This document shows positions 8,331 to 64,000 of a stretch of DNA of 64,000 nucleotides, one piece after another. Positions within the stretch are counted from its first letter, which is position 1. Each line of letters starts with the position of its first letter. The position numbers and the translations under genes were made by a program. This DNA is from Raillietiella orientalis. Its lineage: Eukaryota. The notes below the pieces were generated by a model, which made no database searches, was not told where the DNA came from, and was given only the letters and a program-made list of their open reading frames with translations. The stretch lies in contig JAYWIR010000033.1 of assembly GCA_036172245.1 (NCBI GenBank), positions 496,001 through 560,000 of the forward strand, read 5' to 3'.

Positions 8331-8399
8331 CCAAATGAAATTGAGCGCTAGAGTTAGCTGCTCGGTATGTCTACGGAGAAGCTGAAGTGGTTCCAAGCG

Positions 8400-15074: not shown

Positions 15075-15110
15075 ATTCGCCAGAGAAACCAACTTGTTTC
15101 TCTGGCGAAT
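15075..15110. repeat. Perfect 15-bp stem, 6-nt loop inverted repeat
   Basis: ATTCGCCAGAGAAAC-CAACTT-GTTTCTCTGGCGAAT. Confidence 0.95.
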
Positions 15111-24790: not shown

Positions 24791-24804
24791 TCGCCGACTC
24801 GGCA

Positions 24805-29580: not shown

Positions 29581-30910
29581 TTGCACTCGTGTGAGCCGTG
29601 GCTTTTATTATTGAAAATTTTTACAATGAGAATCTCATAAAAAAGTCTTCTTAGCTTGTCAAGGAAAGTATTTATTTTTCTAATTGATTCCTTTCAAAGT
29701 CGGAACACATGATTCGACTGTCTTGAAGAACTTGACCATACCGGACCGTAGGCAGATGAGGTCCTTCACACCGGCGCAAGGACGGAAAAAACAAAAATAA
29801 AGCAACAAAAAAGAAAAAAAGGATAACGCCCAAGGAAGACAATGTTCTTTAAGAAAGGGGGGGTAAGGGAGGGGATCACGATACATCCTGAGTAGGCCTC
29901 TGCAGCAGGTTGCAGAGTCCTTCAGTCCTGGATACACGTGTGACGAGAAGCTGATACTGCTGGCAGAACTCTCGGACTAAGACCTTCAAATGGTCCCAGT
30001 CATGGAGACTCTGGAGCGTGACACTTCTGAGGAATTCGCGAAGGTGCTCCTTCGCACCTGAGAGTCGCGTCCAGTACCACGGCAGACGCCACTACCTGAA
30101 TGGCGGTCCCTTGTCGCAAGGCCACACCTCGAAAATTAGCCGGGAATGCTCCGACAGCGACGAAGCGAGCTCCCCCCGTTTGTCGACCCATGAACACAGG
30201 TCTGCGTCGAGGAAGACGTGATCAATGCTGCGGACCATTCCTTCTCACTCGTGAACAAGCTGAGCGCACGCATGGCGCTGCACAACTGGTTCATCGCGTT
30301 CTCCTGTATTGCCGGCTCACCTGTTAGCAGACGGACATTGAAATCATCCGCTATCAGGTGAGCCTTTCGCACATTTATGTTCGCCAACCAATCGCGCTTC
30401 AGGGTTTCCAGCAACCTGTTACGGTCGTTGTAGCCCTGTTTGCCGCTGGGGGCATGCAGGTTTGTGAAGATCAGCTCGATCGAATCAGACCACCTGAGTA
30501 TCAGCTAACCGACCCGACCGTCGTCATGAAAGCGTACGACCTTCACGGCAGTCTCGATGGGTGGCTTGACGAAGAACGCGAACCCGTAGGTGTTGCGGAG
30601 GCCGCAAGTTTCTCGGTGCGACCGCGACTCCGCGCGTCACACCGAGAAAATTGAGTTTTTCGAGAGACTGCGCGACCGCTGGCTCAGCAACTCCTGCCCT
30701 GACGTGGCTCACCTCGTAGCCGGGGACTTCAACGTCCACGCGCTATCGGTGGAGTCTCACCGTCGCCCGGAGAAATGGCTGGTGAACGAGGTGTGCGCGT
30801 CCGTGCAAGCCTTGAATTTGCTGGCCGACGATCCCGGTATGCGTGCTTTGCCGGACAATGCGTTCTTCGACGATCACCTGCATTGTCGAATGGGTCGTTT
30901 CCTGCAGCCA
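29581..30910. mobile_element. Mosaic of family B pieces: minus 3' end (29581-29950), minus EN (29950-30620), plus EN fragment (30625-30910)
   Basis: AHLIADDFNV in ORF 30136..30414; AHLVAGDFNV in 30590..31036; A-rich reverse UTR at 29785-29820. Confidence 0.7.
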
Positions 30911-32181
30911 TGCAGGTATGTTAACGGGGCGACAGCAGAGCCATCCTGCGTTCTTCCTCATCAGGTCAGCCACTCTCCGCAGCTGCAACCCGCACTGACC
31001 GACTTGGTGGCGACGACGAAGCGCAAGGATGGATGACGGTCCCACCTTGCCTGCAGCCTTTTCGACGAATAGACGTGCGGGCTCGCACCACCTGCTCTTT
31101 CAATATTTCGCCACTAGGGCGAGCAACCGAAAGTGGAGCTGGAGCTCTAGCCGCTCTAGCGTCAGGAGGCCGAGACCGCCGTTTCGACGCGGAGCGCTCA
31201 AGTCCTCAAACCGGACTCGGGCCCTCTGATCACCTCACAGGGCAATCCTTAGGAGGTCCTTTGTCCGCTTTTTAGTCTTTGGAGTGGAGGGAAAAACAAA
31301 AACCAGGTAACGGAGGAGGGGAACCGCGAACGCGTTTCACACCGCGGCCCGTTCCGGCAGGAATAACCTGCGGTCTTGGAACGGGACGAACGCCGTCTCT
31401 ACCTTTTGAAGGCAGCTGGACCACGCATCCGAAGGAAGATAATCACCCATCGGTACACCGAGGTACTTGAAGTACTGTACCGTGGGGTTCCTCAAGCGGA
31501 ACCAGTCCGGCTTCCCTGCCCACGCCGCACCGATTGGCATGACGGACGACTTCGCCCTGTTCACCTAAAGCCCGGTTCCCCGACTTGGAAGGTCGAACAA
31601 CTCCTCGACCGCCGATGCCGAAATGGACATAGGGAGCAGCAGCAGAAGGTCGTCCGCATATGCTGACACCGCAGGCGTACCGGGATAGGTGTGCTAGAGT
31701 TTCCCTGTACGCTCTCAGTACCAACTCGAAGTAGGTACTCAAGAGCAAGGGAATCAGGCCGTCTCCCTGCCGTATGCCGTGTCGCACCGATACGCCGTGC
31801 ACGGTCTACCCGCTCAAAAAGATCTGGATAAGCGCGTCGCGCCAGCAGGATCGCAGGTACGTCAGCAAAGAGACCGGGAAGTCCAAGCGTTCCAGGAGCT
31901 CCAGGAGAAGCCTCTGGACGAGACAGTCAAATGCTTCATGCAAATCGACTGCGACTGCGAGGGCTTCCTCCCCCACAACAAAATCCCGTTTCCTAGAGGC
32001 GGACATTCCGGAAGTCCAGTTGCCCATCCTGACCCTTTCCATTTAGAGCGCGAAAAAGGTGCTGGGGAAAAACAGATTGGCATCCATGCTCCGCCCGGGA
32101 ACAGCATATGTCTGCTTCGGGCGGATGAAGGTTTCCACTAACTACCCCAGGCGTTCAGCCCACAATTTCGCCCAGAATTTT
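30910..32181 (-). mobile_element. Family B RT 3' half; proposed continuation of the outer host broken at 63423
   Basis: Begins AKLWAERLG..QTYAVPGRSMDANL, directly after the DAK motif, then VDLHEAFD and GIRQGDG. Confidence 0.78.
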
Positions 32182-32380
32182 CAATTTTTTTCCTTTCTTA
32201 TTCTATTGTATTTTTCTTTTCTCACTCATCCCCTTCCTCTGCCGATGAGAGCTACACCGGGCTGCGTTCCGGTGTCCCGGCAGGTCCGGTATTGCGTGGC
32301 CGTCAGTGGGGCCTTGTACTACGTTCTTGAATGACGGAAGAAATGCTTTTTAGTAAACGTCTTGGCGTATTAGAGTGACA
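32182..32380 (+). mobile_element. 5'-truncated family B 3' UTR
   Basis: Homologous to 63240-63420; ends AGTAAACGTCTTGGCGTATTAGAGTGACA. Confidence 0.75.
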
Positions 32381-32429
32381 TCGCCAACCCCTCGTTATGT
32401 GTTGAGCCTTCGCCGAAAGTCGGTGTGGG

Positions 32430-34429
32430 TGGACGTGTTTTTTGGTCGCTCCGCCAGTGCTTGTCTAAGAAGCAACCGGAGTTTTTTGTGTAGTTAGGTG
32501 TCAAGTGTGGATCATCGGTGTCCGATGACAGCCGTGCCAGAGGACACCGCGATGGATGTAGTTGTGGGGGAGGCAAGTCCTACCACAAGACCTACAGCTA
32601 TGGGGGCAATAGTCCCTGGAACGTCTTCGCAGCCGGCGAAGACTTGGAGTAAAATGGTCGCCGCCACCAGTGCGGAGGCCATGGCCGAGGAAGCCGCCTA
32701 TCGGGTCTCTGAATACAAGTTATCGCTTGTATACAAGGCAGGCCCTTTGTTTGAAGGAAACACGGCGCGCTCTTTCAGCAGAGCGCTTCAAAATGCTAAT
32801 GACCGTGAGGAAGATCTGGAAGGTCTGTGCGTGCTCAGCGGGTTGAGCTGGTGTGCAAGAGCATCAGCCTAGTCGATCGCCTTATTAATACCCCGCTGAT
32901 CATGGACGGCCGTGAGATCTTCCCGGTGTCAATGGACCACTCGGTAGAGGTCCACTTGACAGGAATATCCAAGCGCATGACGCGCACTGCCGTGAAAGCA
33001 GAATTCAGTAAGTACGGGGACGTACACGCGCTGTGGCCGAAGTTCACAATCTTTGAGGGCTACGGACGCCACTTCGTATGCCTCGCCACGGCACGCGTAA
33101 CCCCCAAAAACGAAGCGAAGCTACCCCACAAACTCGAGATCGCAAGAGAACCGGTAGACCTCTGGTATGCGGGCAAGCCACGGTATTGCGGCTACTGCGA
33201 TGCGGTCGGACACATCCGTAAGAGGTGCCTAAACATCGTATGCTACTTGTGCGGAAAGAAGGGACTAGTCCGTCCCGTGTGCCCTAAACGCCCCACCTTA
33301 ATTTCCTCGGCTGCCAAAAAGGCGCAAGGGAAACGCGCAAGGAAAGAAAAAATAGAAAACCGTGAAACTGGCCGAGAAAAGCTGCCAATAATTCAAGCTC
33401 CAAGCGCGGCATCTGAGAAAAATCTTCCCGAAACCGCAGAGGGTGAACAGGGCTGGCAGCTAGTCAAAGCCAAAAAAGAAAAAAAGGAGAAGCATGTCCC
33501 AAAGAAAGGAGAGAAGGCGGCGGCCGGAACAAAAGCCCAATCCGTGTCGCGGGTAAAAACTCTCCGGGAATGCACGGTTACGCTGGCGCGCATTGACGTT
33601 CCCGCCGACACCACCGGAGGCGATACGGCTTCGATCGATTTTCCCGCCGCGACGAATGCGCGCGAAAACCCAGCCCCTGCTTGCGAAGAGGGTCAGCCGG
33701 ACGACAAAATCGCCAAAACCAAGAAGGCAGCCTTCGAGAAGGCCGCCGAAGAGTTTGCGGCAACGCTTGCCGAACGCGAGAACCCTTCGCGAAAGGGGTT
33801 GCGTAGGCCGGCAGCGGCTAAAGTGGCCCCCGCAGGTGAGTCGGACCGGGAGGCAGGAAGTGCATCCTCCTCTGCGGAAGCATCACCAAGGTAAGCGGGG
33901 CGAAAATCCCAGAAACCCCGAAGGTGCATTCCGCCTCCGCGCGAGGGGGATGCAATGGTGGAGGAACCAGTGGATGGCAGCGTGGGAGCCCAAGTCGGGC
34001 ATCACCCACGTGCGGAAGCCGACGAGGAGGCGACTCCGAAGGAGGAGGGTAACCAGGGGTCAGCAATGCCCTCTGAAACCGCCGAACTTGAACCACCCGC
34101 ACCAATGGATGTGGGCCAACAGGTACGAACAACACCCCCTTCGCACGCGCAGCCGGAGACGTCGGCACGTAAGAAGGATGGGGAGTTGGTGGGCAAGACG
34201 CCAGCCCCGTCCAGCGACCCGCCCCAAAAGGTGGCGGGCGCAACACCGCCAGGTTCCTAGGAATAACACCTGGACTCGCCTGTCGCCGTCGGATCCGCGC
34301 GGTCTGTTGTAATGTCAACGGGCTGCGCGACGACAGACACAGAAGGGACACAGCCGCCACCTAGCGAGATTTCGACCTGGTGCTTTTGCAGGAGATCCAC
34401 GTGATCACTGCAAAAGACGCACAGGAGAT
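32430..34429 (+). mobile_element. Level-1 family B host, segment 1: 5' UTR, ORF1 (about 32525-34266, disrupted), EN start up to AQE|
   Basis: GGACGTGTTTT 5' motif; ORF 32827..33894 with CGYCDAVGHIRKRC and CYLCGKKG; then NVNG..LLQEIHVITAKDAQEI. Confidence 0.88.
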
Positions 34430-35324
34430 TTCTCACCCGGTCACGCCGGGGCGTTTATTTCATATAAATACAATAGAAATAAATATATAAAAAAAAACAG
34501 TTAGGGACCACGTTCCCAACCGACGACGGCACAAGTATCAGGAGAATATTGCTGGTACGCAGGCCAGAATTACACAAAACGGTTTGTGGAAACTGAAAAA
34601 ACAAAAACAAATACAAAATAAAAAGAAATTAACGGGGGACGCGGGGCAAGGGTCTTTGGGATCGCTTTGGTTCTCTCCGGTATCATAGTAATGGCACCGG
34701 TATTTTAGCAGAGCGAGCGGGAAAGGGGTATGAATGAGCTTCAGGACGTAGTGGTCACCGGATTGAGCCGTTCCAAAAAGTCTGTAAACCGGCGGTAGAT
34801 GCCGGTAATGTCCTCTTTGACCTCGTAACGAAGATGAGACCACCATGCAGCGTTTTTCATAGATTCTGCTGCAAACCGGTGAGCCTCCCTTCGCTGCGCT
34901 GACAACTCCAGGGCGTAGCGGGCCTTCAAGATGGCGTGAATGCAACACATGGTTGCATCTGTCCGATCACACCGAAATCGTCTTATCGTTGCTCAAAGAG
35001 GTGTAATTGCTAGCGTTGACGCCGCTTTTTCCTGGGAGGAAGAACCCTACGCGCGTGTTTTCCAGTTCATGCAGCTGCTCTTTGCCTTTGAAGAAGAAAC
35101 GAATAGAGGTTGCGAAGCGTTCTCAAGAGATTGTTCTTTTCTCGACTCCACGACCTGCCATTCCTCGTCACGATATTTACGCGCTTCCGCGACTTTCGTC
35201 TCGAAAACCTCCGGAGTTTTCGCTACCGCCTCTAGGGGCGTCGCTTTCGCCACGTTTTAAAAGGACGCAACGGAGTAACCTTCTTGGCAGTCGGGAGATT
35301 GCTCCTCTCCTGCCGAGTCGGTGA

Positions 35325-38300
35325 ACTTGCTTCGCGGCTCAAAGTATTGTGCGCTCGACAACTTAATCAGTTAATTGTGCTCGTGTGTGCCCGGAGAGGG
35401 GAAGTTTTCCAGACAAAACTACAAAAGAAGCGCCGAGGTGATCGCGGCGGAAGACCTGCAGTGGTCCCGTGCAGCAAGACCAGCTGCCAGGATGCAGGCA
35501 CCTGGAGGAGGAGTGGAGAGACCGTCGTCCCCCATGGAAGCCATGGAGGTAACGTGCGGCAACGGCGAGGCGGTGGCAGGCATGCCGAGGATCGCGCCCG
35601 CGGCGAGCTTAGATGCGCCGGCGGTGGCGATGCCAAAGGTCGTGCCCGCGGCGACGACGGCGGAGGTCGTTCCCGCGGCGGGGAAGGTCGCGCCTGCGGC
35701 GGCGATGCCGAGGGTGCCGCCCGTGGCGGCAACGGTGGCGACGTCGAGGGTTGCGCTCGGAGCGGAGGCGTCCCAGGCAGGACCCGCGGGCGTCCACGCG
35801 GTTCAGGGCGACACGCCATCTTGTTCGGCTGCGGCGGCGCAGCCCTTTTCCTATGCGTCGGTGGCGACTGGACAAGCGAGTGTCCACCCACCAAAAAAAT
35901 TCGGAAAGCCGCTATGCGGTAAAGTCCAAAGGTGGATCGGCCGATCGTGGAGTTAGGGCTGAATGTGAAGCCCATCATTTTCAAGACTAAGCTGATCATG
36001 TTCAATAATATCAGGGAGGTGTATCTGTCCCTCGATAAAACGGACATGAATTTTGATCGCATACAGGCGATCATACCAGCAAACAACGGGTTCACAGTTT
36101 TCACAGACTTTGAAGAGATTAGAGAGCGATTGATCCAGAAGGGGATCAATATACAAGGGAGGATGGTTTGTGGTGTTGGCGAGATGCCATACACAACCGT
36201 GTTTCTGAACGGCATCTCCATCCTCACACCGCAACTAATGGTTTGGAGCTTTTTGGAGCAGTATGGGAAAGTTCTGGACCTTGAATTCCAGAACTTCTCT
36301 GAAAATATATTTTCTGGCGACATGACCGCCAAAATGAAGTTGAAAGAGGAAGCTGTAATCCCTGGATTAGCCGTTCTTGACGAACAATCCCAGGGAGTGA
36401 AAGTGCGTTACCGGCAACAACCGATATTCTGCACCGGTTACAAGCAGTTCGGCCACAGGGCCGGCGCTTGCCCAACGTGTCGTTGTTTCCGCTGCGGCAA
36501 AGTAGGACATCAAGTCCGAAACTGCCCGCAGCCGGAGGTGTGCTCCTTCTGCAAAAAACACGGACATGCCAAATGGAGCTGTCCGGAGTTTGCAAACTGC
36601 AGAAGGATTCGAGGTCTCTCTCCCGAGAGAGAGAGAAACACCAAGAAGGCGGAACAGCCTCAGAAGGCAGGAAGGCCAAAGAAGGTGAAAGAAGCCGTTT
36701 TGGTATCGGAAGACGGCTTCATACAGGTAAGGAAGAAAGGAAAGAGGAGGATACTCGTCAAGGAGCAAGAAACCCCTCTTATCCTACAAGGTGAAGAGCA
36801 AGAAAACGAGAAGATGGAGGTAGCGCAGGCAGGCCGGAAGAAGAAATAGCCGAAGCCACTCCGGTGTCGCAGGAGGCCCTGCAATCCTCGCAGGAGTTGA
36901 AATCACTGGCTAACGAAGTCCTAGAGGTGCAGAGCGGTCCCCAGCAAGAGAAAATCATGCACAAGATCTGCTCTGCACAAGACAACATCACATAGGTTGT
37001 GGAGGTCGCTGAACGCAAAAAGCTAGAGGAACAGCTTCTCGACGTAAATGCGAACTTCCGCGCCAAGGTCCAGATTAAGACGCTATCTCCAAAACTGATC
37101 GCGCGGGCAGAACACTCGACGGAGGAAGTGGAAGAAACCGACCTCACCTGAACAGAGAGTGACGCCGGCAGCGAGAAGCCCGCTGCTTCTTCATTGTCTG
37201 GAAGAGCACGCTCTTTCAGACAGAAGAAGCTCAGGAAGGCCAAGAAATAGGCTTCCCCTTTTATGGCCTCTTCTATATCGACCGCCAGGAGGCTAAACAT
37301 CGCCTCCTAAAATGTAAAAGGTATGGTCGACCAGGGAAAAAGAAAAAGGATTGTGCGGACCATCGCACAACAAGACATAGTGTGCCTGCAGGAGACCCAC
37401 AAGATGGGTCTTGAGATTAGTCAGCAAATGGAACGGCGATAAAACGGGCAGATTTTCGTCAGCGAGGGAGAACGGAACACGCAGGGTGTGGCGGTCCTAA
37501 TCAAGAACAACTTGGCCCCCACTATTCTGGAAGTGTTCTCTCCCCAACCCGGACGAATCATCGGCGTGCGACTGGCCTGGTCTTCTACTGTTTACCTTAT
37601 CCTGGTGAACGTGTACGGGCCGCACAGGCTAAAACATCGTTGTGCGGAGGCGCTGCATGCAGCACTCCGTGAAAAGGTTGCTTCCAAGGACGTCGTGATG
37701 GTTGCTGGCGATCTCAATATATTGGATGAGATCACTCACTCCGAAGACGCCAGAGGAAGGACGGCGTATCGGCGGTTATTTGAAGAGTTCGGACTGGTGT
37801 GGTGAACTACAAGTCACAAGCCGATCGATCACGTCCTGCACAGCACCGAACTTGGGAATCGCATCCAGGGTTTTCGAGACATTATGACCACGGTGTCCGA
37901 TCACCCCCTGCTGCGGTTTTCCCTAAGGAGGGAAAATCCTCGGCGAAGGCAAGGCACCAGGGCGGCGCTCATCAGCATGTTCGCCTGGTTTGAAACCCAT
38001 TCCGGACATCAGGCTGTCCTGGAGACGATTCTGAAGGCAACAACAATCCGAAAAGTAGCCGACTGGGACAGCCTGAAACACAGGATACACCTGTTTGCAA
38101 ACATGCAGTTTGAAAATAGGCGCTTGAGGCAGGAGGCGTACCGGGAGCTGAACATTTAAGATCGCTTACTCTCAAAGTACTTCGATCAGTGCGAGAGTCG
38201 GTACGTCTTGAAGAACCTAAAAGGGGAAGTCGGCGTGCTGGAGAAAAGAAATCTGGCAACAGATATCTTCTGCATCCAGTACGACGGTCAAAAGCCACAG

Positions 38301-40908
38301 TCGTCTGATGACATCGTGGACGTCTTTCAAAGGCATCACACGAAACACTTTTGGCGACAACATCTCTGTCGCTCTAGTCAACAGGCCTTTCTGAGCTACC
38401 TCGAGAAAAGGACCGACGATCTCCAGCGGAAAAGACTGGAGGAGGAATTCTCCGAAGACGAGGTGAAGACTGCGTTTGGTCAACTACGCAAGGACGTGGC
38501 AGCGGGCCCTAACAGCGTACCCATCACTCACTTTCAGCGGTACTTGCGTTTGTTCCACCAGTTGACCCTCTGCATCCGCGAAGAAGAAAGACTTCCACAG
38601 TTCTTCTACGAGAGTCGGATGAGATTGTTGCCAAAAGGAGGCGACCTCACGCAGGTCGCTCAATGGAGGCCAATCCCGATCCTGAACTCCGATGCCAAGT
38701 GGTTGGCGAAGATCTGGTCCAACCGCTTCGGCAAGGTCACGTCGACGTTCATCTCTCCGGTCCAAACGTGTGCAGTCCCTGGACGTCACATGTCGGACAA
38801 TGTCAAGTGTGCCCAGGCCACCGTCGGACTCAGCCGATACGTCGGCGAGAATCTGGCGCTGGTGTTCACTGACATGGAGAAGGCCTTCGACTCCATCGAC
38901 CATGGGATGCTGCTGATGGTTCTGGAGAAGCTAGGAATTCCGGAACACTTCAGCAACATGGTGAGGGTGGTACTCCAGAACAAGTACTGCCGAATCAAAA
39001 TCAACGGCCAGGAGACGGCAGCAATCCGGATGATACGGGGAGTCCGGCAGGGCGATTCGCTAAGTCCGATGCTGTTCGTCATCTACATGGAGGCGTTGTC
39101 GTCTTTTATCGAGAAGAGCGGACGACTGCAAGCCATAACAATCGATGGCCAGGGTCTTACCCATCTGGCATACGCTGATGATCTACTCTTCTTTATCAAG
39201 GGAGAGAGAAATCAACGAGAGTTTCTGGATGTGGTAGACCTGATGGATCAAGGACTCGGGCTAAAGATCAACGCCCAGAAAAGCCAGCTCTTGCCCGTTG
39301 GAATCCTCGATCTCTCCACTCTTGCGAAGAGAGGATTACGAACGGTGGACAAGGCCAAGTACCTGGGTGTCTACATTGGCGACGTCTCCGCGTCGAAGCT
39401 ATTGTGGACCGAGATCCTAGGGAAAACGGCCAAGGAAGCAGCCAAGTACACCCGAACGGACCTTCGAATGAAGCGAAACGCCAACATATGGAACGGAGTA
39501 CTCCTTCCAAAAGTGCTCTTCGGGGCGGCCTTCGCGAGGATGAACAAGGAAACCACGAAGGAGTTCGACAAGCTGCAGAGAAAAACACTGTGGGGCCACT
39601 ATCGCCCAAGAGTCCGACTAAAACCCCTGTGTCGTCCCAGGGAAGAAGGCGGTTCCGGGATGAAGTCGTTTGCACACTCCATAGAAATCGTGGATACGCG
39701 ACACATCCTCGACATTGCCACTCACTGGGATGACTGGCCGTATGCGGCGCACAGGGCCTACGCGTTGTTGTTGAACAACTCGAAAGGCCTGATGACTGCG
39801 CTGCTAGGCCGGGCAGGCGAATGGAAAAAAATCGACCCAACCTGGACGAAAAAGCAACGGCCGGTGCGAAAGCACAAAATCAAGATCGTGCCGAGAAGTA
39901 GGGAACTCTGGCAGGACGAGTCCATCCTGGTGATCCCTTGGATGCTTCCTGTCCCGCCGGACACGAGAAGCTGGATCCACCAGCGGTCCAGAGTTACCCT
40001 TCAACGAATCCAGGAGTGGAAACGAGGAGGGTACCTACATCACACTTGTATACTGAGGTATATAGAGATAATGTTTGGAAGGCTTGCCCACATGACCCGC
40101 GAGGTGTGGTTCAATCACAACGACTTTGCGTGGTCCAGGGTAACCAGAACAAACCTCCGAAGACTAATTCAAGAAGAACACAGTGAAATTAATGCCCTCC
40201 AGGAAGCCGCCGTTCGCTACGGGAGTGACCGGATCAACCTGTTAGCGATTGGCACGTCGCTCTGGAGGAGTGACCTTCCGCCGGGCACCCAGGATGACCT
40301 CCTGATGTTTTATCATGGAGGAATTCAGAGTGGGTCCCTATTGCAGCACTACACCGGAAGAAGGGAAGATCGAGACTGCACAGCATGTGGAGACATCGAC
40401 ACGAGACTTGACGTCTTGACGTGTCCCACATCGCTGCATGACTGGCTGATCCTGAAAAGGATCATCGGACTCACCACCAGGTCCGTAATGGAGATCCTCG
40501 CCGGGATGTTTCAGGGGGATGGTAATGTTCCCTGTTACAATCCCATGGTGAGGACGACCATCGCCCTCTTCATCACCGCCATACTTGTGCGGTGGTGGAA
40601 AATGAGGAAAGCCAGAAGAGCCGCACCACCGATGGAGATCCTACAAGGGCTCCTGAAGAGGGAAATCGGCATTAGAAACTGTGGGAAAATTCAAGCCTGG
40701 ACGTACCGATTCATCCTGAAGAGGATAGAAGACGACGCCCGGAACCAAACAGCAGGAAACCCACCATGAGTGCAGAACTTGTGAGAACCTAGGACTTCAT
40801 AGTGGTAAAAAAGTGCCAATGGTATGGATGAGATTGTAGTGTGAATGTTCTTATAGAAAAATTTTAGAAAAATAAATTCACCTCACCCCTCGTGGGGCTT
40901 GGGGAAAA
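35325..40908 (+). mobile_element. Family A LINE copy 1, full-length but defective (ORF1 about 35492-37250, ORF2 37263-40769)
   Basis: ORFs 35375..35956, 35932..36849, 37488..37805, 37884..38159 and 38208..40769; several stops in EN. Confidence 0.93.
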
Positions 40909-47767: not shown

Positions 47768-48503
47768 GCGCAAGAGATCAAACGGATCTCGGGTGGGCGG
47801 CTGTTGTGGCGTTGCGGCCCTGCGAAATCAAGCGGTGTTGCCTTCCTGCTTCAGTTAGCCATCGAGACGGCAATTAAGGACGTTCGGTTCGATGACGGAG
47901 GTCGCGTCGGTCGGCTGACTCTCAGCTGTTCCAATTCAATCGACGTGGTCGTCACCAGCCTGTACGCTCCTCTCGGTAAGGATGCGTTGAGGGCGAAGGC
48001 AAGAAGAGAATTCTACCTTGCCCTCGGATGGGATTCGCTTATCGGAGCAGGTGTTCGCAAAGCGCACCTAATTGCAGCTGACTTGACCCTGCGCCTGCTT
48101 CCACGTGCGCCGGATACACTGAACGACCGCGTCAACGAGTTGTGCGCGCAAATGCAAACGTGCAACTTGCTGTCCGGAGATGCGGACATGGAACGGAGCA
48201 TCGATCACGTGTACCTTGACCAGCACCTATGCTCTCAAGTGGGCAGGCTCGGCTAGTTACCGTCCGAGCTGTCGGAGCATGGCCGAATCGTGTTCGAAGT
48301 GCGTCCGCGCGACAAGGGCCCCCCCTCGTCAGCGTGACGTCTGCCCTGGGACTGGCTGAAGTTTCCCGACACTTCGGAACACCTCAGCGTCTTTATTCGG
48401 AGCTTCAGGATGCAGACGCTTCAGGACAGGGACCGCTTGAAGTGGTCGGTCCAGGAGTTCTGCGACCAGTTCCCTCTGCATCGCCTACCTGCGGGATTTA
48501 AGG
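47768..48503 (+). mobile_element. Level-1 host, segment 2: rest of the EN domain
   Basis: Resumes AQEIKRISGGRLLWRCG..GVAFL, then SLYAP and IDHVYL; ends HRLPAGF. Confidence 0.85.
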
Positions 48504-54170: not shown

Positions 54171-54757
54171 CAAGGGATTCGAAGAGAGGCCGCGTAACGA
54201 AAGGTGCTATCTTCAGGCCCGACGTTACGCGAGAATCCCCGACATGAGCAATTTAGCGAAATACCGAGCAAGAGCCGAGAGGCAAGCCTGGTAATCAGGG
54301 TCGGCAAGCTTCTTGGACGACCAGGGCCGGGAGCACTTGGTTCCCGCTCAAAAACGCGTAATAATGGAGAAATTTTACTCCTCCCTGTACTCCAGGGAGC
54401 CTCCGGAGAAGGATGTCTTACGACTTTTGCTTCCGGAAGGTGCTTTAGCGATCGGGGAGGAGGAGAAAAGGAACCTCGACAAGACTTTCACGATGGGCGA
54501 GATCATCTCGGCCATCGGAAAGCTCAAGAGGGGAAAGGCTCCAGGGGAGGACGGCCTGCCTGCGGAGTTTTATCAAACTATCGCGGCAGAGCTTACTCGC
54601 CTGGTACATCAGCTCACCTTGCTGATCCGCGAAACAGATGACGTTCTCACCACGTTTCGTTCAGCAAAGGTGCGTCTCCTCCTTAGAGGAGGAGACCTTA
54701 GGAGCATGAACAACTGACGTCCCATCACAATAGTGAATGCGGACGCTAAGTTCCTAG
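54171..54757 (+). mobile_element. Level-1 host, segment 3: ORF2 linker up to RT DAK
   Basis: Resumes KGFEERPRNERCYLQARR, includes KAPGEDGLPAEFY, ends IVNADAKFL. Confidence 0.87.
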
Positions 54758-56837
54758 TTGCCACCCGGTCACGCCGGGGCGTTTATTACAAATTCTCTAT
54801 GATTCGTGGTACGAGGTCCAACTACGGCCAACTCAACTGGACCTGCCGGGTCGCCGGTACGCAGACCGGAGCGACTCTCCTCGGCAGCAAAAGGAGGTGG
54901 GAGAAAAAACCAAAAAAAAATAAAACATAAAAAACAAAAAGATTTGGGGGGGTTAGGGAGGGATCACTGATCACTGGGAGGAAGGTCCATACTTTGCAGG
55001 ATGCCCTCGATGTCCGTCCGTATGCTTCTAAGGTGGGGCCATCCGGTCGCAATCCGCAGGTAGCGGACAGCAAGTACGACGGCATCCCTGTCGTGACTCG
55101 GTCTTCTGAAGTTGTTGCAGCTGGTCACAATCCCGCGTATGCAGCAAAGTGCAGCCAGGGTAGCGGCTGGACGCAGGGCATCCTGCACGAACAGAAGCCG
55201 AAAAATGGCTTTGGGCTGGCTGCTCTCCTGGATCCGTAGGGAGGCACGAAGACGCTCCCACAGGGGTCGGAGGGCAGCACAATAAACAGGGAGGTGGAAG
55301 AGGGTTTCCCGTTCCCCAGACCTGATGCAGGTAGGATCTACACGACCGTTGGTTCAGTGGTGGCGGTGTGCGTTGCAGGGAAGACCTTGATGCAACAACA
55401 GAAGCGCCGACTCCTGCCGCTTCAGGGGGAGGACCCTAGAACCAATTCATACCGGGGGCCACTTCAGGTCATCCGGCTGGATGCCGAGTAGCTCGCCCCA
55501 TCTCTGAAGTCCTCTCGGCTGGACACTGGGAGTAGTAGAGTCCGCCAGTTACCCCGTGGACCAGCCGCTTATCAACTTCTTCTTGCCTGCGATATGGCAG
55601 GAGACGTGACACCTAGGCTTGCGGCTGCAGGAGAGCGCCCTTCTCAGGAAAAGCATCGCTGTAGCTAGAAGGGTTGTCTCTGCCCACGTGCTTCTCGCGG
55701 GACACTGGAGTATCTTCTGTAGAGTGCAGCAGGAATAGGCGCCGCGTCGCAGGCAGCTCCACATCTCTCCGTTTTTCTGGTATATCTTCGCCCACGTGCC
55801 AGCTGTCTCCTCCAGCCATGCTGAGAAGTTGGCGGAACTGCATACCATCCAGCCGTTTTCCTTAGCCAGAGTTGCCATGCGTCCCACGAGAAGTCCACAT
55901 CTCTTGATCTTCCTGCTACGGCACAGAAGATCAGACGCAAGACCCTCGGTCCCGGATACACGGCTGGCAAGGAGTCGGGCCGAAACGCAACAAGGGGTGC
56001 TCCATAACTTCGCTGCGATAGCAAGGGTTTGCCACCGCATCTGAATCTCTACTCGCTTCATCGTCAAGAGGCCGAAACGCCATCTCGACGTGGAGTACAC
56101 ATGTCCTTCAACGGGACACAAGGCCTCCCTCTTCCCCAAAGGGCAATTCTGAGGAGGTTTTTCGTCCGTTTTTTCAACTCTCTGGGGACGGAGCGAACAA
56201 AAGCCGGGGGCGGAGGAAAGGAGCCGCGAACGCGTTCTGTACCGTGGCATGTTCCGGAAAGAGAAATTTGCCTTCCAGGAACGGGCCGATCGCCGTTCCC
56301 ACTTTTTGGAGGCAGCCAGACCACGCTTCCGCAGGGGAGTAGTCCCTCAACGGCACACCAAGGTTCTTCAAGCACCTTGCCGTGGGGATCCCCAAGCGGA
56401 CCCAGTCCTGCTGCCCAGCCCACGTAGCACAGTCGGGAACCACCGTCGACTTAGCCTTGTTCACCGATAGTCCGGCTAAGCAGATCGAAAAAATCCCCGA
56501 CCGCCTTTGCAAGGGTTTACATCGGCAACAGAAGCGAAAGATCGTCGGCGTACGCTGCTATGGTGGGCGTGCCGGTGCACGAGCTTAACTTGGGGGCTAA
56601 AGTCACCCTGTACGCTTTTAGCACCAACTCAAAGTAGGTGCTAGAGAGCAGGGGACTGAGGCTGTAGCCCTGCCGTATGCCCCGCCGTACCGGCACGCCG
56701 TACGCCATTCGACCTCTGGAAAAGATATTGATCAGCGCGCTGAGGAAGCAAGAGAGCGGGTAGGCCGATAGGAAGGGCAGGAATCCTATGCGTCCCAGGA
56801 GCCTCGGTGGGAGATCCTGGTCGACGCAGTCGGACGC

Positions 56838-58389
56838 TCGATGCGTCGGCCCGTTCCGAGGCGGCAGGTTTTTCCTGCCTGAACGGGCCGCGGTTTAAAC
56901 ACGTTCGCGGCTCCTCTCCTCCTCCCCCTGCTTTCTGTTTGACCCCCCAAAGAGAGAATTAAAAAACGGACAAAGGACCTCATCCGTATCTCCCTTTCGA
57001 GCAACGGGAGGGCCCTAGTCAGTTAAAAGCACTTGTGCGCTCCTCGTCGGGACGGTGGTCTAGGCCTCCTGACGCTGGAGCGGCTGGAGCTTCAGCTCCA
57101 GTTCCGCTTGTCGGCACTCGTTCCAGAGTTGTGGTGCACCTGTTGGTGCGTCCCTGCACGTCTCCTTCTCCAGCAAGCCATTGGCAAGACGGGACTGACG
57201 TCGTTTCTTGCACTCCGTCGCCGCGTCAACCGATGCGGACTCCAGCTACGGAGGGTGCCTGCGCTGTATCGGAAAAACCCAGGATTGGTCACCTTTCGCC
57301 CTTTGAACGGTAGTGCCTGGTTGCAGAAAACCGTTCGAACGTGGAAACAGTTCGGCATGCAACGCTCTTAACAGGAACGAAGGTACCTGTTTGGGGGTTA
57401 CGAAAGTTGCAAGCTCCGCGAGATCCTGGGTGATCCAAAGAAGAGAGCGTTGGCAGGAACAACCCCCCTCGCTGCTGCGCTGCCCTCCCTGATGGAAGAT
57501 CTTAACAGCGATGTGGCGGCGAAGTGGTAGGTCACAGTAACAATCTTCGGGAAAGAGAAGAAGATAGGATAGTGGAAGACGGGTCAGCTGACTGACGCTG
57601 CCTTTCCGAGTACGACTCTCCATGGACTTCTACGCTGAATTGCGCTGCTCCACGTTCCCATTGAACGTTTGAAGTGGCCCCGGTACTTATTAACACCTCC
57701 ACCCTCCTTTTAAAATGGCAGGAGTCGTCTCTCCTGTTGCAGTACTGGGGACTCCCCTGCAACGCTCGCCGACACCACTGGACCTGGGGAGCGGTGGACC
57801 CCAATTGCGTCAGGTGTAGGGAAGGGGAGTCCCTCCGCCACCTGCTAGTGGATTCTGTTGCCCTTCGGCCCCTTTGGTTTTGCTTTGCCGCGGTCATCGG
57901 AGTCCCCTGTGTCAACCTCAGGGACGTACTGAAAGCTCTCTTCGTTGCCGACGCCATTTGGCCAGCGACCTCGTTAGCAGCCCTGTGATGCCATCGCTGG
58001 ATCGTCGCCGCCTGGAATAAGGCTACGGAAGGACCACACGAGCAGGGTGCCATCCAGTCAGCTTCCCAGTTCCTAAGGAGTGCGTCCCGATTGCCCCACT
58101 TGGTTCCAGGAATACAGAAAGGAGCTTGCCGGCATCCTTTAAAGGATGCAACGGCCCCACCAGCAACTGTGATCCCTTCCCTTACCCTACCAACTTTTCT
58201 TTTCATTGTTGTTTTGTTTTTTGTTTTTTCTTCTTCTTCCTGCTGCCGTGATGGATTGTACCGGTCTGCGAACCGGTGACCAGGCAGGCTCTGTGTTTGT
58301 TCGTGCGTGGCTGTAGCAATGGTTTATCCACTGCACGTCTTTGTGAATGTTTATTAAACAATAAACGCCTCGGCGAAATCCGGGTGAAA
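56838..58389 (+). mobile_element. Level-3 5'-truncated family B copy inserted at RT KAFD|
   Basis: PRRDGGLG and CVRC..HLLVD motifs; terminal AATAAACGCCTCGGCGAAATCCGGGTGAAA; host reads DLRKAFD on one side and ASDCVDQDL on the other. Confidence 0.83.
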
Positions 58390-58999
58390 ATCGAACGCCT
58401 TGCGAAGATCGACTGCGACCGCTAAGGCACTTGGCGCTTTCTCAGGCTGAATGCTGCGACATTTAGCTTTGGCAGCCGCAGTTGCGGTTGCCTGGCTTTC
58501 GTGCGCCACGCAATGTTGCAGCTCGACCCACGTGCGCGCCAAAAACAAGTTCGCCTTCATGGTCCGCCCGGGAAGAGCGTATGACTGCTCCGGATTTACC
58601 AAGAATCCAGCGATCCTGCCTAGGAGCGCGACCCAGAGCCTGGAGAACAACTTGACGTCCGCATACACCAAAGTGATCGGACGGCAGTTGCTTAAACGAG
58701 GCATGTCTCCGCCTTTCGGCAAGAGACGCACCCTTGCTGAGCGAAACGAGGCTGGGACATTGCTCGTCTCTCGCATCAGCGCAGAAACTCTTAGCATCAG
58801 GGGGATGAGTTCCGCCGCGAAGCACTGAAAGAACTCCGCAGTCAGACCATTCTCACCTGGAGCCTTGCGCTTCTTGAGGCCCGCTATGGCGGAAGACACT
58901 TCTTCCGCCGTAAAGGGCAAGTCAAGAGAGGCGCGTTCCTCCTCATCGACCGCAGGGGAATCCTCCGGCAGAAGCAGCTCCGAGAGCGAACCTAAGGAC

Positions 59000-60157
59000 A
59001 TTTACCGTCTCCGCTTTCTGAGTGACGGCCTGCACCCAGCTGCGTCTATAGCAGTCCTCTGCTACGTGCGCGGCATTGTGCAAAGGTGGCACGAAGAAGC
59101 AGAGGTTTAAGATGCAGGAACGCCATCCACTGGACGACGATCTCTTTGGAGACGGCGGAAAGGTGGCGTCTACCTTTCACAATAAAAACCGAACTTGACT
59201 GCATCCTCAACAGGATGCGAAGGACCGAACCAGGCGCACAGTGATACCTCTCCTACCCCCCATCTCTTCATAGAACAGTTTCCTTCCTTGTTATTTCCTT
59301 TTTTGTTTTTTGTTTTCCTTTTCCAGTTCCGCAGCGCCTGGATAGGGAACCTTGCCGGTCTAAAGACCGAGTAGCGAGTACATTGTAACGTTGGAGAACC
59401 CAGTGTTATCCTACAGAAAACATTTTTTAAAGACTTTATTATCTAATTTTGGTAACAAATTAGATTAATGAATGCCCCGGCATATCCGGGTGACAAACGG
59501 AGGACGCACTTGTTGTTCGCTCCGTGGATAGGGAGTTTTTTGACTGGTGTTTCGTGTGTGTTTCGCGGCCGTTGACAGGCAGAAATGCCTGTGAACGCCG
59601 CAGTTTCAGGTGAGGGAGGCGGGAAGATCGCGTCTCCCAAGCCAAAGGAGGTGGGATTACGCCCCACCACTACTTCGGCACCTTTCCCCGCCACTACGGC
59701 GAAGGCATGGAGCGCGGTGGCTGCGGTGCAAACTCCCGATGTCGCCCCCGAAATACAATCCTACATCGGGGAGGGCTACAATCCGGCCCTCCTGTACAAG
59801 GTAGGAAATTTATATTCCCCGCGACATTTCTGCAATGCCATCAAAAAGATGGAAATTCCCAACCATGAAATTATTTGCCTCTCAATATGGAGCGGAGGGC
59901 AGTTGGCGGAGCTCATCTGCAAGGATGCTGCTCTTACCCACAAGATGCTCTGCACGCTCGTACAATTTGAGTTGAGGAATTTACTCCCACACACTGTGGA
60001 CCACTCCATTGTGGTCCACCGAACAGGGACAACAGTGCGGATGGATGAGAACGCCATCCGCGCTGAACTGGAAAAATTCGCAAGCGTTTTCGCGATGTGG
60101 AGAAAGCCCAACACCTTCGGAGTGAATGGTGCATTTAGTGGGCGAGTAGGCGCGCGG
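59000..60157 (+). mobile_element. Level-3 head-to-tail junction fragment: family B 3' end (to 59496) plus next element's 5' UTR and ORF1
   Basis: GCCCCGGCATATCCGGGTGACAA then GGACGCACTTG; ORF 59585..60160 resembles the ORF1 at 5.3-6.2 kb. Confidence 0.8.
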
Positions 60158-60749
60158 TAAATGTACTGGGGCTTGCCCACGTTCCAGACGTCGACGGTCT
60201 CGTTGCCGACGTCTAGTTTGTGGGGTAGCCCACTGTTTTCGTGGACGGTTACACGCGCACCAGCCATGCCACTAAACAGTCTTCCGGAACTGTGGAAGAC
60301 AATGGGCTTGGTCCATAGCGCGTAAACCGTTCCGTATTTTCCGAGTTCCTCCTGCACGTCGGCTTTCGACATGCGGAGGGTGACTCCAGTGACCAGCGTC
60401 ACCACGGAGCGATCCTCCGTTACCAAGAAAACCTTTCGGCCTTCCAGTGTGATTGGCGTATTCAGGAGGTGTTGAGCAAGGCTTGCATTTCTGCAAGTCA
60501 GCTCCACCCGCTGACCACCACTCAACACGGAAAGACCTTACAGGTCTTCCTCTTTTACGTTCAACCGCTGCAACTCCCTTTCGAAGTTGCGAGCGGTGTT
60601 CCCCACAAACAGATTGCCTACCTTGTATATCAGGGACGGCTTGTATCCCTGCTCCAGGAAGGCTTTCTGCTCGGCGAGGGCTGCAGGAGATGGGGCTGCA
60701 GCCACTGAACTCTAGGTCTTCGGCGATGCCGAAGACGCATTCGAGGGTG

Positions 60750-60880
60750 CAAATGCCCCCTTTTTCAAGGAGGCGGTTGCGCCCTGTTCCAGCGGGGCTT
60801 TTGCCCCCTTTTTCATGGGGGGCTTTGCCCTTGCTTCCGAGGCGGTGCTTGCCCCCTTTTTCAGGGGTGCGGCTGCCGTC
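60750..60880. repeat. 48-bp period degenerate tandem repeat in ORF1 N-terminus
   Basis: GCCCCCTTTTTCA-like unit three times; encodes PLKKGA, PMKKGA and SLKKGA on the minus strand. Confidence 0.8.
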
Positions 60881-61069
60881 GCCTCCGTGGGGGCGGTTAC
60901 CTTCACCTCCGTGGGTTGGGGAGAGGAGCAAGCCTCTCCCCCTCCTATATCCATCGCGGTGTCCTCAGGCATTTCTGCCATTGGACACCGCAGATGCTTT
61001 ACACACAAACACAATCGAAATCAACCGCTTTACACCAGGCGCGGAAGAGCGCTACAAAAACACGTCCGC

Positions 61070-63422
61070 ACGCCAAGTTGATAGCAGGGCTATGGGCTTC
61101 GCGTCTGGGGCAGGTGGCAGAATCCATAATTAGCCCGGAGCAGACTTACGCTGTTTCCGGGCGAAGTACGGATGCCAACCTCTTCTTTGCGAGCACATGG
61201 ATGCACGTGCAGAGGTGTCAAAAGGAAGGGAAAGGAAAAATCGGCAACCATACTTTGGGGCCGTAAGCAGGACAGGGAATACAATCAAGGGCGGGGTAGG
61301 GGGCCTTAGCGCTCGCAGTCGATCTCTATAAGGCGTTCGAGTGTGTTGACGAGGAGCCTTTGTTGGAGCTCCTGGGTCGCATGGGCTTCCCAACCTCCCT
61401 ACTGACCTACCTGCGCTCTTGCTGGCGCAGCGCGCTGATCAATATCTCTTTCAGAGGACAAATAGCGTACTGCGTGCCGGTACGGCGGAAAATACGGCAG
61501 GGCGACAGCCTCAGTCCCCTGCTCTTTAGCACCTACTTTGAGTTGGTGCTGAGAGCGTATAGGGTGACGTTGGCCCCCTTGCCGAGCTCGTGCCCCTGCA
61601 CGCCCGCCGTAGCAGCGTACGCCGACGATCTTCTGCTCTTGTTGCCGATGTCCACACCGGCAAAGGCAGTCGACGATTTCTTCGACCTGCTTAACCGCGG
61701 AACCGGACTGTAGGTTAACAAGAAGAAGTCGTCGGTGGTGCCAGTCGGTGCGACGTGGACTGGGCAGCAGGACTGGGTCCGTTTGGGAATCCCCTCGGCG
61801 AGGTGCTTGAAGTACCTCGATGTGCTGTTGGGGGATTACTCCCCTTCGGATGCGTGGTTCGGCAGCCTCCAAAAAGTGGAAACGGCAATCGGCCCGTTCT
61901 TGGAAGACAAGTTCCTGATTCCGGAACGGGCCGCGGTGTCGAACTCCTTTGCGGCTTCCATCCTCCGCCCCCTATTTTTTGTTTGCTCCGTCCTCAGAGA
62001 CATGAAAAAAAGAACGAAGAACCTCCTGAGGATTGCACTTTGGGGAAGAGGGAGGCCTCGAGTCCAGTTGAAGGACTTGTGTGCTCCACGACGGGATACC
62101 GGTCTGGGCCTCTTGACGGTGGAGAGAGTAGAAATCCAGCTGCGATGGCGCACCCTGGCCATCGCAGCGAAGTTATGGAGCACCCCATGGTGCGTTCCGG
62201 CCCGACTCCTTGCCAGCCGTGTATCCGGAACGGAGGGTCTCGCGTCTCATCTTCTGTGCCGCGGCTCGAAGATCAAGAGATGCGGACTCCTCCTGGGACG
62301 CATGGCAACCCTGGCAAAGGAAAACGGCTGGGTGGAATGCAGCCCCGCCAACTCCTCCGCATGGCTGGAGGAGACCGCTGGCACGTGGAGGAAGATAAAC
62401 CAGAAGAACGGAGAGATATGGAAGTGCCTGCGACGCGGCGGCTATTCCCGCTGCACTCTGCGCAAGATACTCCAGTGTCCCGCTAGAAGCACGTGGGCAG
62501 AGACAACCCCCCTAGCTACGGCGATGCCCTTCCTGAGGAAAGCGCTCTCCAGCAGCCGCAAGCCTAGGTGCCAAGTCTCCTGCCATATCGCAGGCAAGGA
62601 GAAGTTGATAAGCGGCTGGTCCACGGGGTGACTGGCGGACGCCACTTCTCCCAGTGTCCAGCCGAGAGGACATCAGAGATGGGGCGAGCTACTCGGCATC
62701 CAGCCGGATGACCTGAAGTGTCCCCCGGTATGAATTGGTTCTAGGGTCCAACCCCTGAAGTGGCAGGAGTCGGCGCTTCTGTTGTTGCATTGGGGTCTAC
62801 CCTGCAACGCACGCCGCCACCACTGGACCCGGGGTCGAGTAGATCCTACCTGCATCAGGTGTGGGGAACGGAAAACTCTCCCCCACCTCCTTGTTGATTG
62901 TGCTGCCCTCCGACCCCTGTGGGAACGTCTTCGTGCCTCCCTACGGATCCAGGAGGGCAGCCAGCGCAGAGACGTTTTTCGGCTTCTGTTCGTGCATGAT
63001 GCGCTGCGTCCAGCCGCTACCCTGGCTGCACTTTGCTGTGTACGCGGGATTGTGACGTGCTGGAGCAACGTCGGAAGACCGAGCCACGACAGGGATGCCG
63101 TCGTACTTGCAGTTCGCTACCTGCGGATTGTGACCATATGGCCCCACCTGGGAATTATACGGACGCACCTTGAAGGCATCCTGCGAAGGATGGACCCTCC
63201 TCCCAGTGGTCAGTGATCCCTCCCCAACCCTCCCAAATCTTTTTATTTTTATGTTTTGTTTTTCTTTTTGTTTTTTCCACCACCCCCTTCCGCTGCCGAG
63301 GAGAGTCGCGCCGGTCTGCGTACCGGCGACCCGGCAGGTCCAGTTGAGTTGGCCGTAGTGGGGCCTCGTATCACGAATCAAAGGGAATTTTTAATAAACG
63401 CCCCGGCGTGACCAAGTGGCAA
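61070..63422 (+). mobile_element. Level-1 host, segment 4: RT 3' half, C-terminal CCHC motif, 3' UTR, terminal motif
   Basis: Resumes AKLIAGLWASRLG; ORFs 61360..61713 (RQGDSLSP, YADD), 61735..62631 and 62782..63216 (CIRC..HLLVDC). Confidence 0.9.
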
Positions 63423-64000
63423 CTAGTAACTTGGCGTTCGTATTCACGATCGTGATCCGACGCCAGTTCTTCAAATCTCTGAGGTCTCCCCTTTTCGGAA
63501 GACGCCTCACTCCCGCTGACCGAAACGAGGCGGGAACCTCGCCTTCGTCTCGTATCATCCTTGTCATCTGAAGCAGCAGGGGTGCCAGCTCTTCCGCGAA
63601 GCTCTGATAGAACTCCGCGAGCAAGCCGACTTTCTTAGGAGCTTTCCGCCTCTTGAGCCTTTTGATACCTAAGAGAATTTCGCCGGTGGTAAAAGGCTCC
63701 TCGAAGCTATTGCCGCGGCACCATCCGGAAGCAAGAGCCGAGAAGCATCTTGATCAGGGGGCGCCCTGGCGTAAAGGGAGGAATAATAACTCCGCACGAG
63801 ATGCCGTACCGACGCCGGGGACGAACACTCCCTGCCCTGATCGTCCAGCAAGCAGGCCGACCCGGATTGCCAGGCTTGACGTTCGGCCCCGGCGCGGTAC
63901 TCGGCCAGGCGACGGACATTAGGGGTTCGCTCGTACCTACGGACCTGTGAATAGACCCCATAATTGCGAGGACCCTCGACGAATCCGGGGGGCAAGCGGT
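63423..64000 (-). mobile_element. Level-0 outer family B host, ORF2 linker up to RT NAK; continues beyond the window
   Basis: ORFs 63669..63995 and 63391..63624: YYSSLYA, AEFYQ, WRRITIVNTNAKLL. Confidence 0.87.

Follow-up and report, generated by a model that had tools for sequence, protein, structure and literature searches.

We analyzed a 64-kb stretch of the Raillietiella orientalis assembly GCA_036172245.1 (contig JAYWIR010000033.1, positions 496,001 to 560,000 of the forward strand; hereafter the window, with positions counted from its first base), in which long interspersed nuclear elements (LINEs) lie nested inside one another. Judged by its sequence, the window is eukaryote-like DNA rich in LINEs, with a cluster of L1-superfamily elements. 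The insertions within LINE coding sequence are antisense to their hosts, and the three most closely related pairs of inserts each share one nucleotide position of those hosts. An initial annotation had described a four-level nest in which every insertion is antisense to its host and had proposed that these LINEs use related LINEs as orientation-specific targets. All results below come from this one assembled locus.

L1-like elements in the window

Pfam searches found the reverse transcriptase (RT) family RVT_1 in open reading frames (ORFs) of 938 and 869 amino acids (E value = 1e-30) and in the interval 137-1492 (E value = 9e-23). For the 937-amino-acid ORF2 of the elements that we call family A, the best relatives of solved structure were human LINE-1 ORF2p (E values = 1.7e-37 to 9e-37), with R2 behind (E value = 2.5e-24). 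Its database relatives were 22 to 32% identical among the 120 matches listed, with the best at 26 to 31%, many of them carrying Exo_endo_phos together with zf-RVT; algal sequences (Coccomyxa, Chlorella, and Chlamydomonas) were absent from the named relatives among these matches, of which only some carry names. Between ORF1 and the RT, Pfam found pieces of the endonuclease family Exo_endo_phos at 37443-37802 (25.2 bits, cutoff 24.5), with further pieces at 42842-43180 (24.2 bits), 43173-43781, 51634-52221, and 1493-2242. Most of these pieces score under the cutoff because the reading frames are broken; a tblastn search with eight distant full-length relatives recovered the RTs but did not find the endonuclease that Pfam did. 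Matches to zf-CCHC were obtained in family A ORF1 (E value = 1.3e-5), in 35923-36849 (E value = 1.1e-4), and, weakly, in ORF1 of an element named M1 below (E value = 0.0038), while ORF1 of element B had no Pfam match to this family. By these matches, the elements have CCHC knuckles in ORF1, while ORF2 carries an endonuclease of the APE type (apurinic/apyrimidinic) together with an RT, and they show L1-superfamily affinity.

No poly(A) or A-rich tail was present at the element 3′ ends, which read ...CCGGGTG(A/G)(G/C)AA or ...GGGGAAAA, each after a short hairpin. The hairpin stem of 4 to 5 bp lies a few bases before the terminus at 34430, 48504, 54758, 58389, 59497, and 4290 (B-like elements) and at 40908 and 46404 (family A), and its sequence differs between family A and the B-like elements. 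Hairpins were predicted in 8/9 folded ends, with stabilities not above those of shuffled sequences (z = −1.5 to +1.4). Rfam gave 0 matches over the whole window, a feature atlas search returned generic RVT_1/zf-RVT clusters only, and an 18-mer from the B-type 3′ terminus, run against metagenomes, hit 54 loci, 0 of them with the remaining 3′ motif, which marks the hits as chance matches.

A four-level nest with alternating strands

At the center of the nest is a plus-strand element, B, which the initial annotation had pieced together from four separated segments. We joined the segments (Table 1) into a sequence of 5,676 bp and compared it with the reverse complement of M2, an uninterrupted element of 5,667 bp. 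The two aligned in a single colinear high-scoring segment pair (76-5676 of B against 71-5667 of M2; 68.6% identity across 5,709 columns), bearing out the reconstruction. A search with a two-sequence profile, from which all profile positions quoted for sites and segments are taken, agreed with it and placed the segments at 4-2028, 2015-2769, 2769-3363, and 3358-5750. Since these positions adjoin with short overlaps, the segments are contiguous and the overlaps are target-site duplications. The peptide of B stops and resumes at AQEI, GF, and DAK/AKL exactly as first read (...AKDAQE / AQEIKR, ...PAGFK / KGFEE, and ...DAKFL / DAKLIA).

The levels of the nest alternate in strand. At level 0 is a minus-strand LINE, M0, broken at 63423 and resuming at 32180, in agreement with the earlier description of an outer minus-strand host. 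Level 1 (plus strand) consists of a 199-bp 3′ fragment (T, 32181-32379), a 50-bp linker, and full-length B; the fragment and the linker, between M0 and B, were missing from that description. Level 2 comprises the three elements that interrupt B, M1 (34430-47767), M2 (48504-54170), and M3 (54758-61069), all on the minus strand as had been claimed, with 3′ ends at 34430, 48504, and 54758 and with recognizable 5′ and 3′ termini in all three. Level 3 is again on the plus strand, with the family A elements A1 and A2 inside M1 and with R (about 56840-58389) and P1, accompanied by P2, inside M3. Two of the plus-strand inserts first proposed at this level, the A dimer (35325-46404) and 56838-58389, were recovered; the third, 59000-60157, proved not to be one insert, as P1 runs to 59497 and P2 from 59498 to 60157. 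In the profile search, host coordinates matched on either side of each insert, and in silico excision of the inserts restored a colinear host element. Because the strand flips at every level, orientation is set by the host element and not by the chromosome. No recognizable source within the window was identified for the linker 5′ of B or for the additional 37 bases with which A1 begins.

Duplications of 13 to 15 bp flank every insertion of which both ends are visible (M1, M2, M3, R, and the A pair), so that the degenerate duplications previously noted at the breaks of B are borne out. The clearest is the 15-mer CTGCCGAGTCGGTGA of the A insertion, present in three copies (35310, 40909, and 46405) that bracket and separate A1 and A2, with no other close match in the window except a duplicate copy at 24791. 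The 15-mers flanking M3 (54743-54757 and 61070-61084) agree at 12/15 positions, and those of M1, M2, and R are decayed, at about 13 to 15 bp. Together with the exact continuity of the hosts, the duplications mark true insertions rather than misjoins.

Table 1. Components of the nest and other LINE features of the window
Feature	Position	Strand	Remarks
M0, outer host LINE, upstream part	63423..64000	-	Stops at site X (RT NxDAK); runs off window; profile 2747-3369
M0, downstream part (RT), after nest	30897..32180	-	Profile 3377-4684
T, 3′-terminal fragment (199 bp) of B-like LINE	32181..32379	+	Head-to-tail, upstream of B
Linker, 50 bp	32380..32429		Between T and B
B segment 1 (5′ end, ORF1, endonuclease start)	32430..34429	+	Stops at site Y
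M1 3′ part, C-type element with internal deletion	34430..35309	-	3′ end at 34430
A-insertion 15-bp target-site duplication, left copy	35310..35324	+	CTGCCGAGTCGGTGA
A1, full-length family A LINE (ORF1 with CCHC, endonuclease, RT)	35325..40908	+	
A-insertion 15-bp duplication, middle copy	40909..40923	+	Between A1 and A2
A2, second family A LINE	40924..46404	+	83-92% identity to A1
A-insertion 15-bp duplication, right copy	46405..46419	+	
M1 5′ part	46420..47767	-	5′ end at 47767; ORF1 with weak CCHC match
B segment 2 (endonuclease)	47768..48503	+	
M2, uninterrupted B-like LINE, 5,667 bp	48504..54170	-	Reference for B
B segment 3	54171..54757	+	Stops at site X; duplication copy 54743-54757
M3 3′ part	54758..56839	-	87-89% identity to B 3′ part
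R, 5′-truncated B-like LINE	56840..58389	+	At RT KAFD motif of M3; start approximate
M3 RT part, upstream of R	58390..58986	-	
P1, 5′-truncated LINE	58987..59497	+	3′ end at 59497
P2, LINE 5′ untranslated region and ORF1 N-terminal part	59498..60157	+	Remainder missing
M3 5′ part, ORF1 N-terminal part	60163..61069	-	5′ end at 61069
B segment 4 (RT to 3′ end)	61070..63422	+	Duplication copy 61070-61084
Inverted copy of 37682-44172 (A1/A2 junction and duplication)	21542..28032	-	98.3% identity; not an independent event
D1, 5′-truncated LINE	2563..2868	-	Antisense inside plus-strand E1 (1537-3882)
e4290, C-type LINE 3′ end	3888..4290	+	Adjoins minus-strand host H4290 (4291 to ~6190) at site Y
e9114, LINE 3′ part	8278..9114	+	Adjoins minus-strand ORF1 sequence 9115-9900
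e29581, LINE with internal deletion	29581..30607	-	3′ end adjoins plus-strand 5′ fragment 29240-29577

Orientation of the 3′ ends

Next, we took a census of element 3′ ends across the window. A blastn-short search with ten 45-nucleotide (nt) 3′ ends gave 12 distinct termini, to which were added 32379, 59497, and a decayed end at about 29226. The terminus at 24806 was left out of the count, as it lies in 21542-28032, a 6,491-bp inverted duplicate (98.3% identity) of 37682-44172 that runs from the 3′ half of A1 across the 15-bp duplication through the 5′ half of A2 and that is either a recent segmental copy or an assembly artifact. All 14 nonduplicated 3′ ends adjoin LINE sequence. Antisense LINE sequence adjoins 10/14 (2563, 4290, 9114, 29581, 34430, 46404, 48504, 54758, 58389, and 63422); these are the very ten ends, eight clear and two decayed, for which antisense contact had been reported. 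The other four lie head-to-tail against the 5′ end of a same-strand LINE, through the copy of the 15-bp duplication (40908), through the linker (32379), or directly (59497 and ~29226).

Sense insertion within LINE coding sequence was found for 0/14 nonduplicated 3′ ends in the profile and six-frame maps of the window. The earlier statement that there were none in sense holds in this form; it is qualified by the four head-to-tail pairs and by two same-strand junctions at about 6190-6210 and 6806-6858. By simple arithmetic, 10/10 antisense insertions have a probability of 2^-10, or 2^-8 when sisters at shared sites are collapsed to 8 lineages. The 5′-truncated, dead-on-arrival copies R and D1 are antisense as well, which speaks against selection acting on expression of the insert itself.

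Sister elements at the same host positions

We then compared the 3′-terminal 200 bp of 13 elements in a matrix. The closest pairs were B and M3 (90), A1 and A2 (90), and M1 and e4290 (76). Precisely these three pairs have a site in common, at the same host position and in the same orientation, as would be expected of target-specific LINEs. At site X, B in M0 and M3 in B both come after ...AAGTTNCTAG; on the host sense strand, they stand directly after ...AAGTT(A/C)CTAG. Site Y, after ...CAGGAGA(T/C), is occupied by M1 in B (profile position 2028) and by e4290 in H4290 (profile position 2027), and A1 and A2 have one common 15-mer site. The inserts B and M3 are 87 to 89% identical and their hosts 68 to 70%; M1 and e4290 are 79% identical, with hosts at 67 to 72% and host ORF1 proteins at 25 to 35%. 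As the hosts are more diverged than the inserts in both cases, the pairs represent independent hits and not copies of one ancestral junction. If a site-specific LINE is defined, for working purposes, by independent insertions at the same base of one target sequence in one orientation and by rare or absent insertions elsewhere, the first of these features is seen here, with only two events per site. For a 5.7-kb host with two strands, same-base sharing by chance would be expected for about 1 in 11,000 pairs.

Of the five mapped sites, three fall within or next to catalytic motifs of the host element, namely, QEIH of the endonuclease and NxDAK and KAFD of the RT, which we take to be conserved L1 motifs. 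Site Y is eight codons past the endonuclease motif LLQEIH (LLQEIH...AQE^), site X is at NxDAK of the RT (NxDAK^), and R stands directly after DLRKAFD of the M3 RT (KAFD^). The M2 site (...HRLPAGFK) falls between endonuclease and RT, and the A target, downstream of the ORF1 knuckle region of M1, matches no known motif. Reading of its flank places e9114 about 20 nt upstream of site Y in a third host. A candidate third use of site X is the A-like minus-strand fragment at 8-1441, whose break is no more than about 12 nt from X, at a junction that is not clean. We also considered the left end of the inverted A duplicate as a further case at site X and rejected it, as homology is lost about 100 nt 5′ of the DAK codons.

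How the nest may have formed

The best reading of these data, in our view and with a probability of about 0.58, is that each lineage inserts by target priming at a specific site of its own, into the antisense strand of other LINEs. From the proposal that LINEs serve as orientation-specific targets it retains the real nest, the orientation relative to the host, and the three sister pairs at the same position; what it does not retain is a single shared target, as the sites differ between lineages. That the antisense rule holds genome-wide we infer from the one window. Starting from the insertions, duplications, strand alternation, and sister-shared sites, all directly readable in the window, the cluster would have grown as LINE copies already in place were entered again and again by target-primed reverse transcription, with each lineage recognizing its own fixed site in other LINEs. 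Recognition of such a site would be asymmetric, and insertion orientation would thereby be fixed. Target-primed reverse transcription, in its standard model, starts cDNA synthesis from the strand that abuts the 3′ junction of the insert with its own 3′ end; on that model, the priming nick would fall on the sense strand of the host LINE and the second nick about 15 bp away. Because a new copy would carry fresh target sites in the opposite orientation, successive levels would alternate in strand. Specificity may be inherited within a lineage through the endonuclease or the ORF2 protein as a whole or through a read-through RNA 3′ tail whose old flank pairs at the same site. The head-to-tail pairs, in which the downstream copy starts at or near its own 5′ end in 4/4 cases, may reflect reuse of a regenerated site (A1 and A2, with the duplication between them) or a jump of the RT between two RNAs, off the 5′ end of the first and onto the 3′ end of the second; LINE RTs are known to jump between templates.

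Several observations weigh against this reading. The sample is small, about 8 to 10 independent events at one locus with junctions known from assembled sequence alone, and every shared site rests on two events only. The next pairs in the 3′-end matrix, D1 with P1 (68) and e9114 with e29581 (62), stand at different sites, and empty copies of site X are present in M2, M3, and E1. No target motif is common to the different sites, which leaves the antisense choice of all lineages unexplained; even with random strand choice for each lineage, 8/8 would need a cause. The two same-strand junctions in the left 10 kb are candidate sense nestings. Minus-strand fragments there are out of order (M2 coordinates 2004-2192, then 600-1196, and then the 5′ end of H4290) and could be sense nestings visible at their 5′ junctions only or deletions within head-to-tail arrays. 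Internal deletions and odd junctions in several elements show that the cluster has also been rearranged, and segmental copying occurs here, as the 6.5-kb inverted duplicate attests, although the unequal divergences of inserts and hosts make segmental duplication a poor fit for the repeated junctions.

One way to obtain only antisense nests without targeting is a filter after insertion, in which both orientations insert and sense nests are later lost by recombination or slippage between direct repeats. Internally deleted elements and chimeric joins on one strand do exist: E1 is joined to the 3′ end of e4290 at 3882/3888, e29581 jumps from about profile position 2741 to its 3′ end, M3 lacks about 2.2 kb, and the two junctions in the left 10 kb can be added to these. 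Most host/insert pairs, however, being largely 60 to 70% identical or not alignable, are too diverged for homologous recombination (B and M2 at the identity given above, M0 and B at 68 to 70%), A and M1 gave no match at the nucleotide level, and the deletion in M1 sits within one duplication-flanked insertion, so it is not the recombination scar of a sense nest. As a filter would also leave sister elements at the identical base of different hosts unexplained, we consider it improbable. That the pattern is due to chance and ascertainment seems a little less probable still. Only some ten events were available in one window, the finding was picked post hoc for its striking look, sense insertions might be harder to recognize, and part of the junctions in the left 10 kb and at 28 to 31 kb are unsettled; yet the profile and six-frame maps were equally able to reveal sense-nested 3′ ends and revealed none, the census gives 2^-10, and three sister pairs with exactly shared sites would be a very improbable outcome of chance.

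A loose endonuclease preference acting on strand composition, with some short motif commoner on one LINE strand and no real targeting, would be in keeping with the often purine-rich bases after the presumed nick (CAGGGC, CAAACG, AGAGAG, and GAGAGG) and with a GCG among the final 5 nt of the duplication at 4/5 distinct sites against a 6% background, a lead found post hoc. Purine content of the sense strand, although 0.556 in family A, is only 0.51 to 0.53 in B-type hosts and under 0.5 in their 3′ parts, and GCG is equally common on both strands (6.4% against 5.9%). Strand composition was accordingly rejected as the cause of the bias, and with a loose motif unable to place sister elements on the same base, we give this account little credence. 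The least credible account is rearrangement or assembly artifact, in which inverted duplications, fold-backs, or repeat misjoins mimic a nest. The inverted duplicate, a 32-nt perfect palindrome at 1477-1508, the convergent truncated ORF1s at 60157/60163, and the assembled nature of the sequence speak for it, but misjoins do not yield 13- to 15-bp duplications on either side of full-length elements whose 5′ and 3′ termini are intact, the hosts are exactly continuous once the inserts are excised, and at the repeated junctions the inserts have diverged to a different extent from the hosts.

Site-specific antisense insertion could be extended, tentatively, to a guild of mutually parasitic LINE lineages, each homing to a different conserved LINE coding stretch (QEIH, NxDAK, or KAFD) and always antisense. 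The first nick would always be made on the host sense (nontemplate) strand, and the strand choice would come from a shared mechanism, e.g., nicking of the strand displaced by host transcription or pairing of LINE RNA, producing self-renewing, strand-alternating nests. We hold this extension to be possible but doubtful.

Rearrangements and other features of the window

P1 ends at 59497 with the usual 3′ motif, and P2 follows directly, breaking off at 60157 against the 5′ portion of M3, which arrives from the opposite direction at 60163. M3 lacks about 2.2 kb and P2 most of its length, so the spot at 59498-61069 has been rearranged. The 5′ portions of P2 and M3 (ORF1 peptides 38% identical) converge there, both stopping in the N-terminal region of ORF1 no more than about 30 codons apart, and the junction looks like that of a deletion whose end points fell in homologous segments lying in inverted orientation. 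The palindrome at 1477-1508 (GCTTTCCCAGCCGTGAT/ATCACGGCTGGGAAAGC) lies exactly between the minus-strand A-like RT fragment (8-1441) and plus-strand E1 and looks like a fold-back junction. Large internal deletions that join ORF1 or the endonuclease to the 3′ end were seen in 34430-35309 plus 46420-47767 (M1), 29581-30607, and 1537-4290. Because its deletion lies within one duplication-flanked insertion, M1 may be a nonautonomous deletion derivative. Within A2, a 163-bp segment (45326-45488) resembling the ORF1-ORF2 spacer of A2 itself (A2 coordinates 1543-1705, 72%) replaces the matching A1 sequence.

The stretch from 9900 to 21500 is GC poor (38 to 47%, against 53 to 61% in the LINEs) and holds weak LINE 3′ debris at 19829-20144 and 20690-21514, beyond which it had no Pfam or Rfam match. 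An inverted repeat (11421-11928 and 15859-16360, 75.8% identity) lies within it, and a Pfam search of 42 ORFs from 6.8 to 21.6 kb gave one weak Zn_clus match only. Long antisense frames of 249 to 346 amino acids run opposite LINE coding sequence at 57535-58323, 35370-36407, and 28190-28936 (minus strand); they had no family match and are probably by-products of GC-rich composition.

Relation to known systems and significance

Site-specific LINEs are known for rRNA, small nuclear RNA (snRNA), and tRNA genes, microsatellites, telomeres, and some transposons. R1 and R2, which are specific to ribosomal DNA, occupy a fixed site of a conserved multicopy target in a fixed orientation and have inserted at one base repeatedly and independently; what they enter is a host gene, each lineage has a single site, and the R2 endonuclease is of a different type. 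The elements studied here resemble them in fixed site, fixed orientation, and recurrent insertion at one base and differ from them in the target.

Other LINEs insert into mobile elements. The Zepp and Zepp-like (ZeppL) L1 LINEs of the green algae Coccomyxa, Chlorella, and Chlamydomonas target existing copies and form nested clusters (PMC3446292, PMC8226300), as here, where nesting reaches four levels. By the descriptions available in these papers, the algal clusters are tandem arrays mostly of 3′ ends, and those descriptions are silent on any antisense rule, on multiple lineage-specific sites, and on targets in coding motifs (PMC3446292, PMC8226300). Cnl1 of Cryptococcus likewise prefers its own copies and forms nested arrays, described in the available text as "within itself in tandem orientation" near telomeres (PMC9942834). 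In our window, unlike in that description, nested insertions are all antisense, the hosts include other families, and the same strand is found only in the four head-to-tail adjacencies. Transposons are targeted by several Tx1-clade LINEs, with Tx1 inserting into Tx1D, Tx1-Mar into Mariner-N4_AMi, Tx1-8_Crp and Tx1-4_AMi into long terminal repeat (LTR) retrotransposons, and Tx1-9_AMi into Harbinger (PMC4494074). These are similar, by description and not by clade placement, in being APE-type LINEs with a lineage-specific fixed place in another mobile element; the targets named in the portion available are DNA transposons, LTR elements, snRNA genes, and microsatellites, whereas here the target is LINE coding sequence (PMC4494074).

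A full-text literature search, with supplements, Higashiyama 1997 (the original Zepp description), and Yamamoto 2003 outside its reach, turned up neither an antisense rule for LINEs nested in LINEs nor lineage-specific sites in LINE coding motifs. The pattern is a variant of known self-targeting or transposon-targeting LINEs (Zepp, Cnl1, and Tx1-Mar), and what is new here is that the three closest sister pairs are each at the same nucleotide position of their hosts. If the locus were only a local accident, it would count as an ordinary cluster of nested repeats. Should the antisense rule hold genome-wide, together with the lineage-specific sites in conserved catalytic motifs, they would make a clear case of LINE coding sequence serving as a safe, self-renewing target for LINEs. 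This would explain the buildup of LINE-only clusters, for instance, as candidate centromeric or heterochromatic blocks, and would offer a natural system for learning how APE-type endonucleases or LINE RNAs gain target specificities and what sets the strand choice of target-primed reverse transcription.

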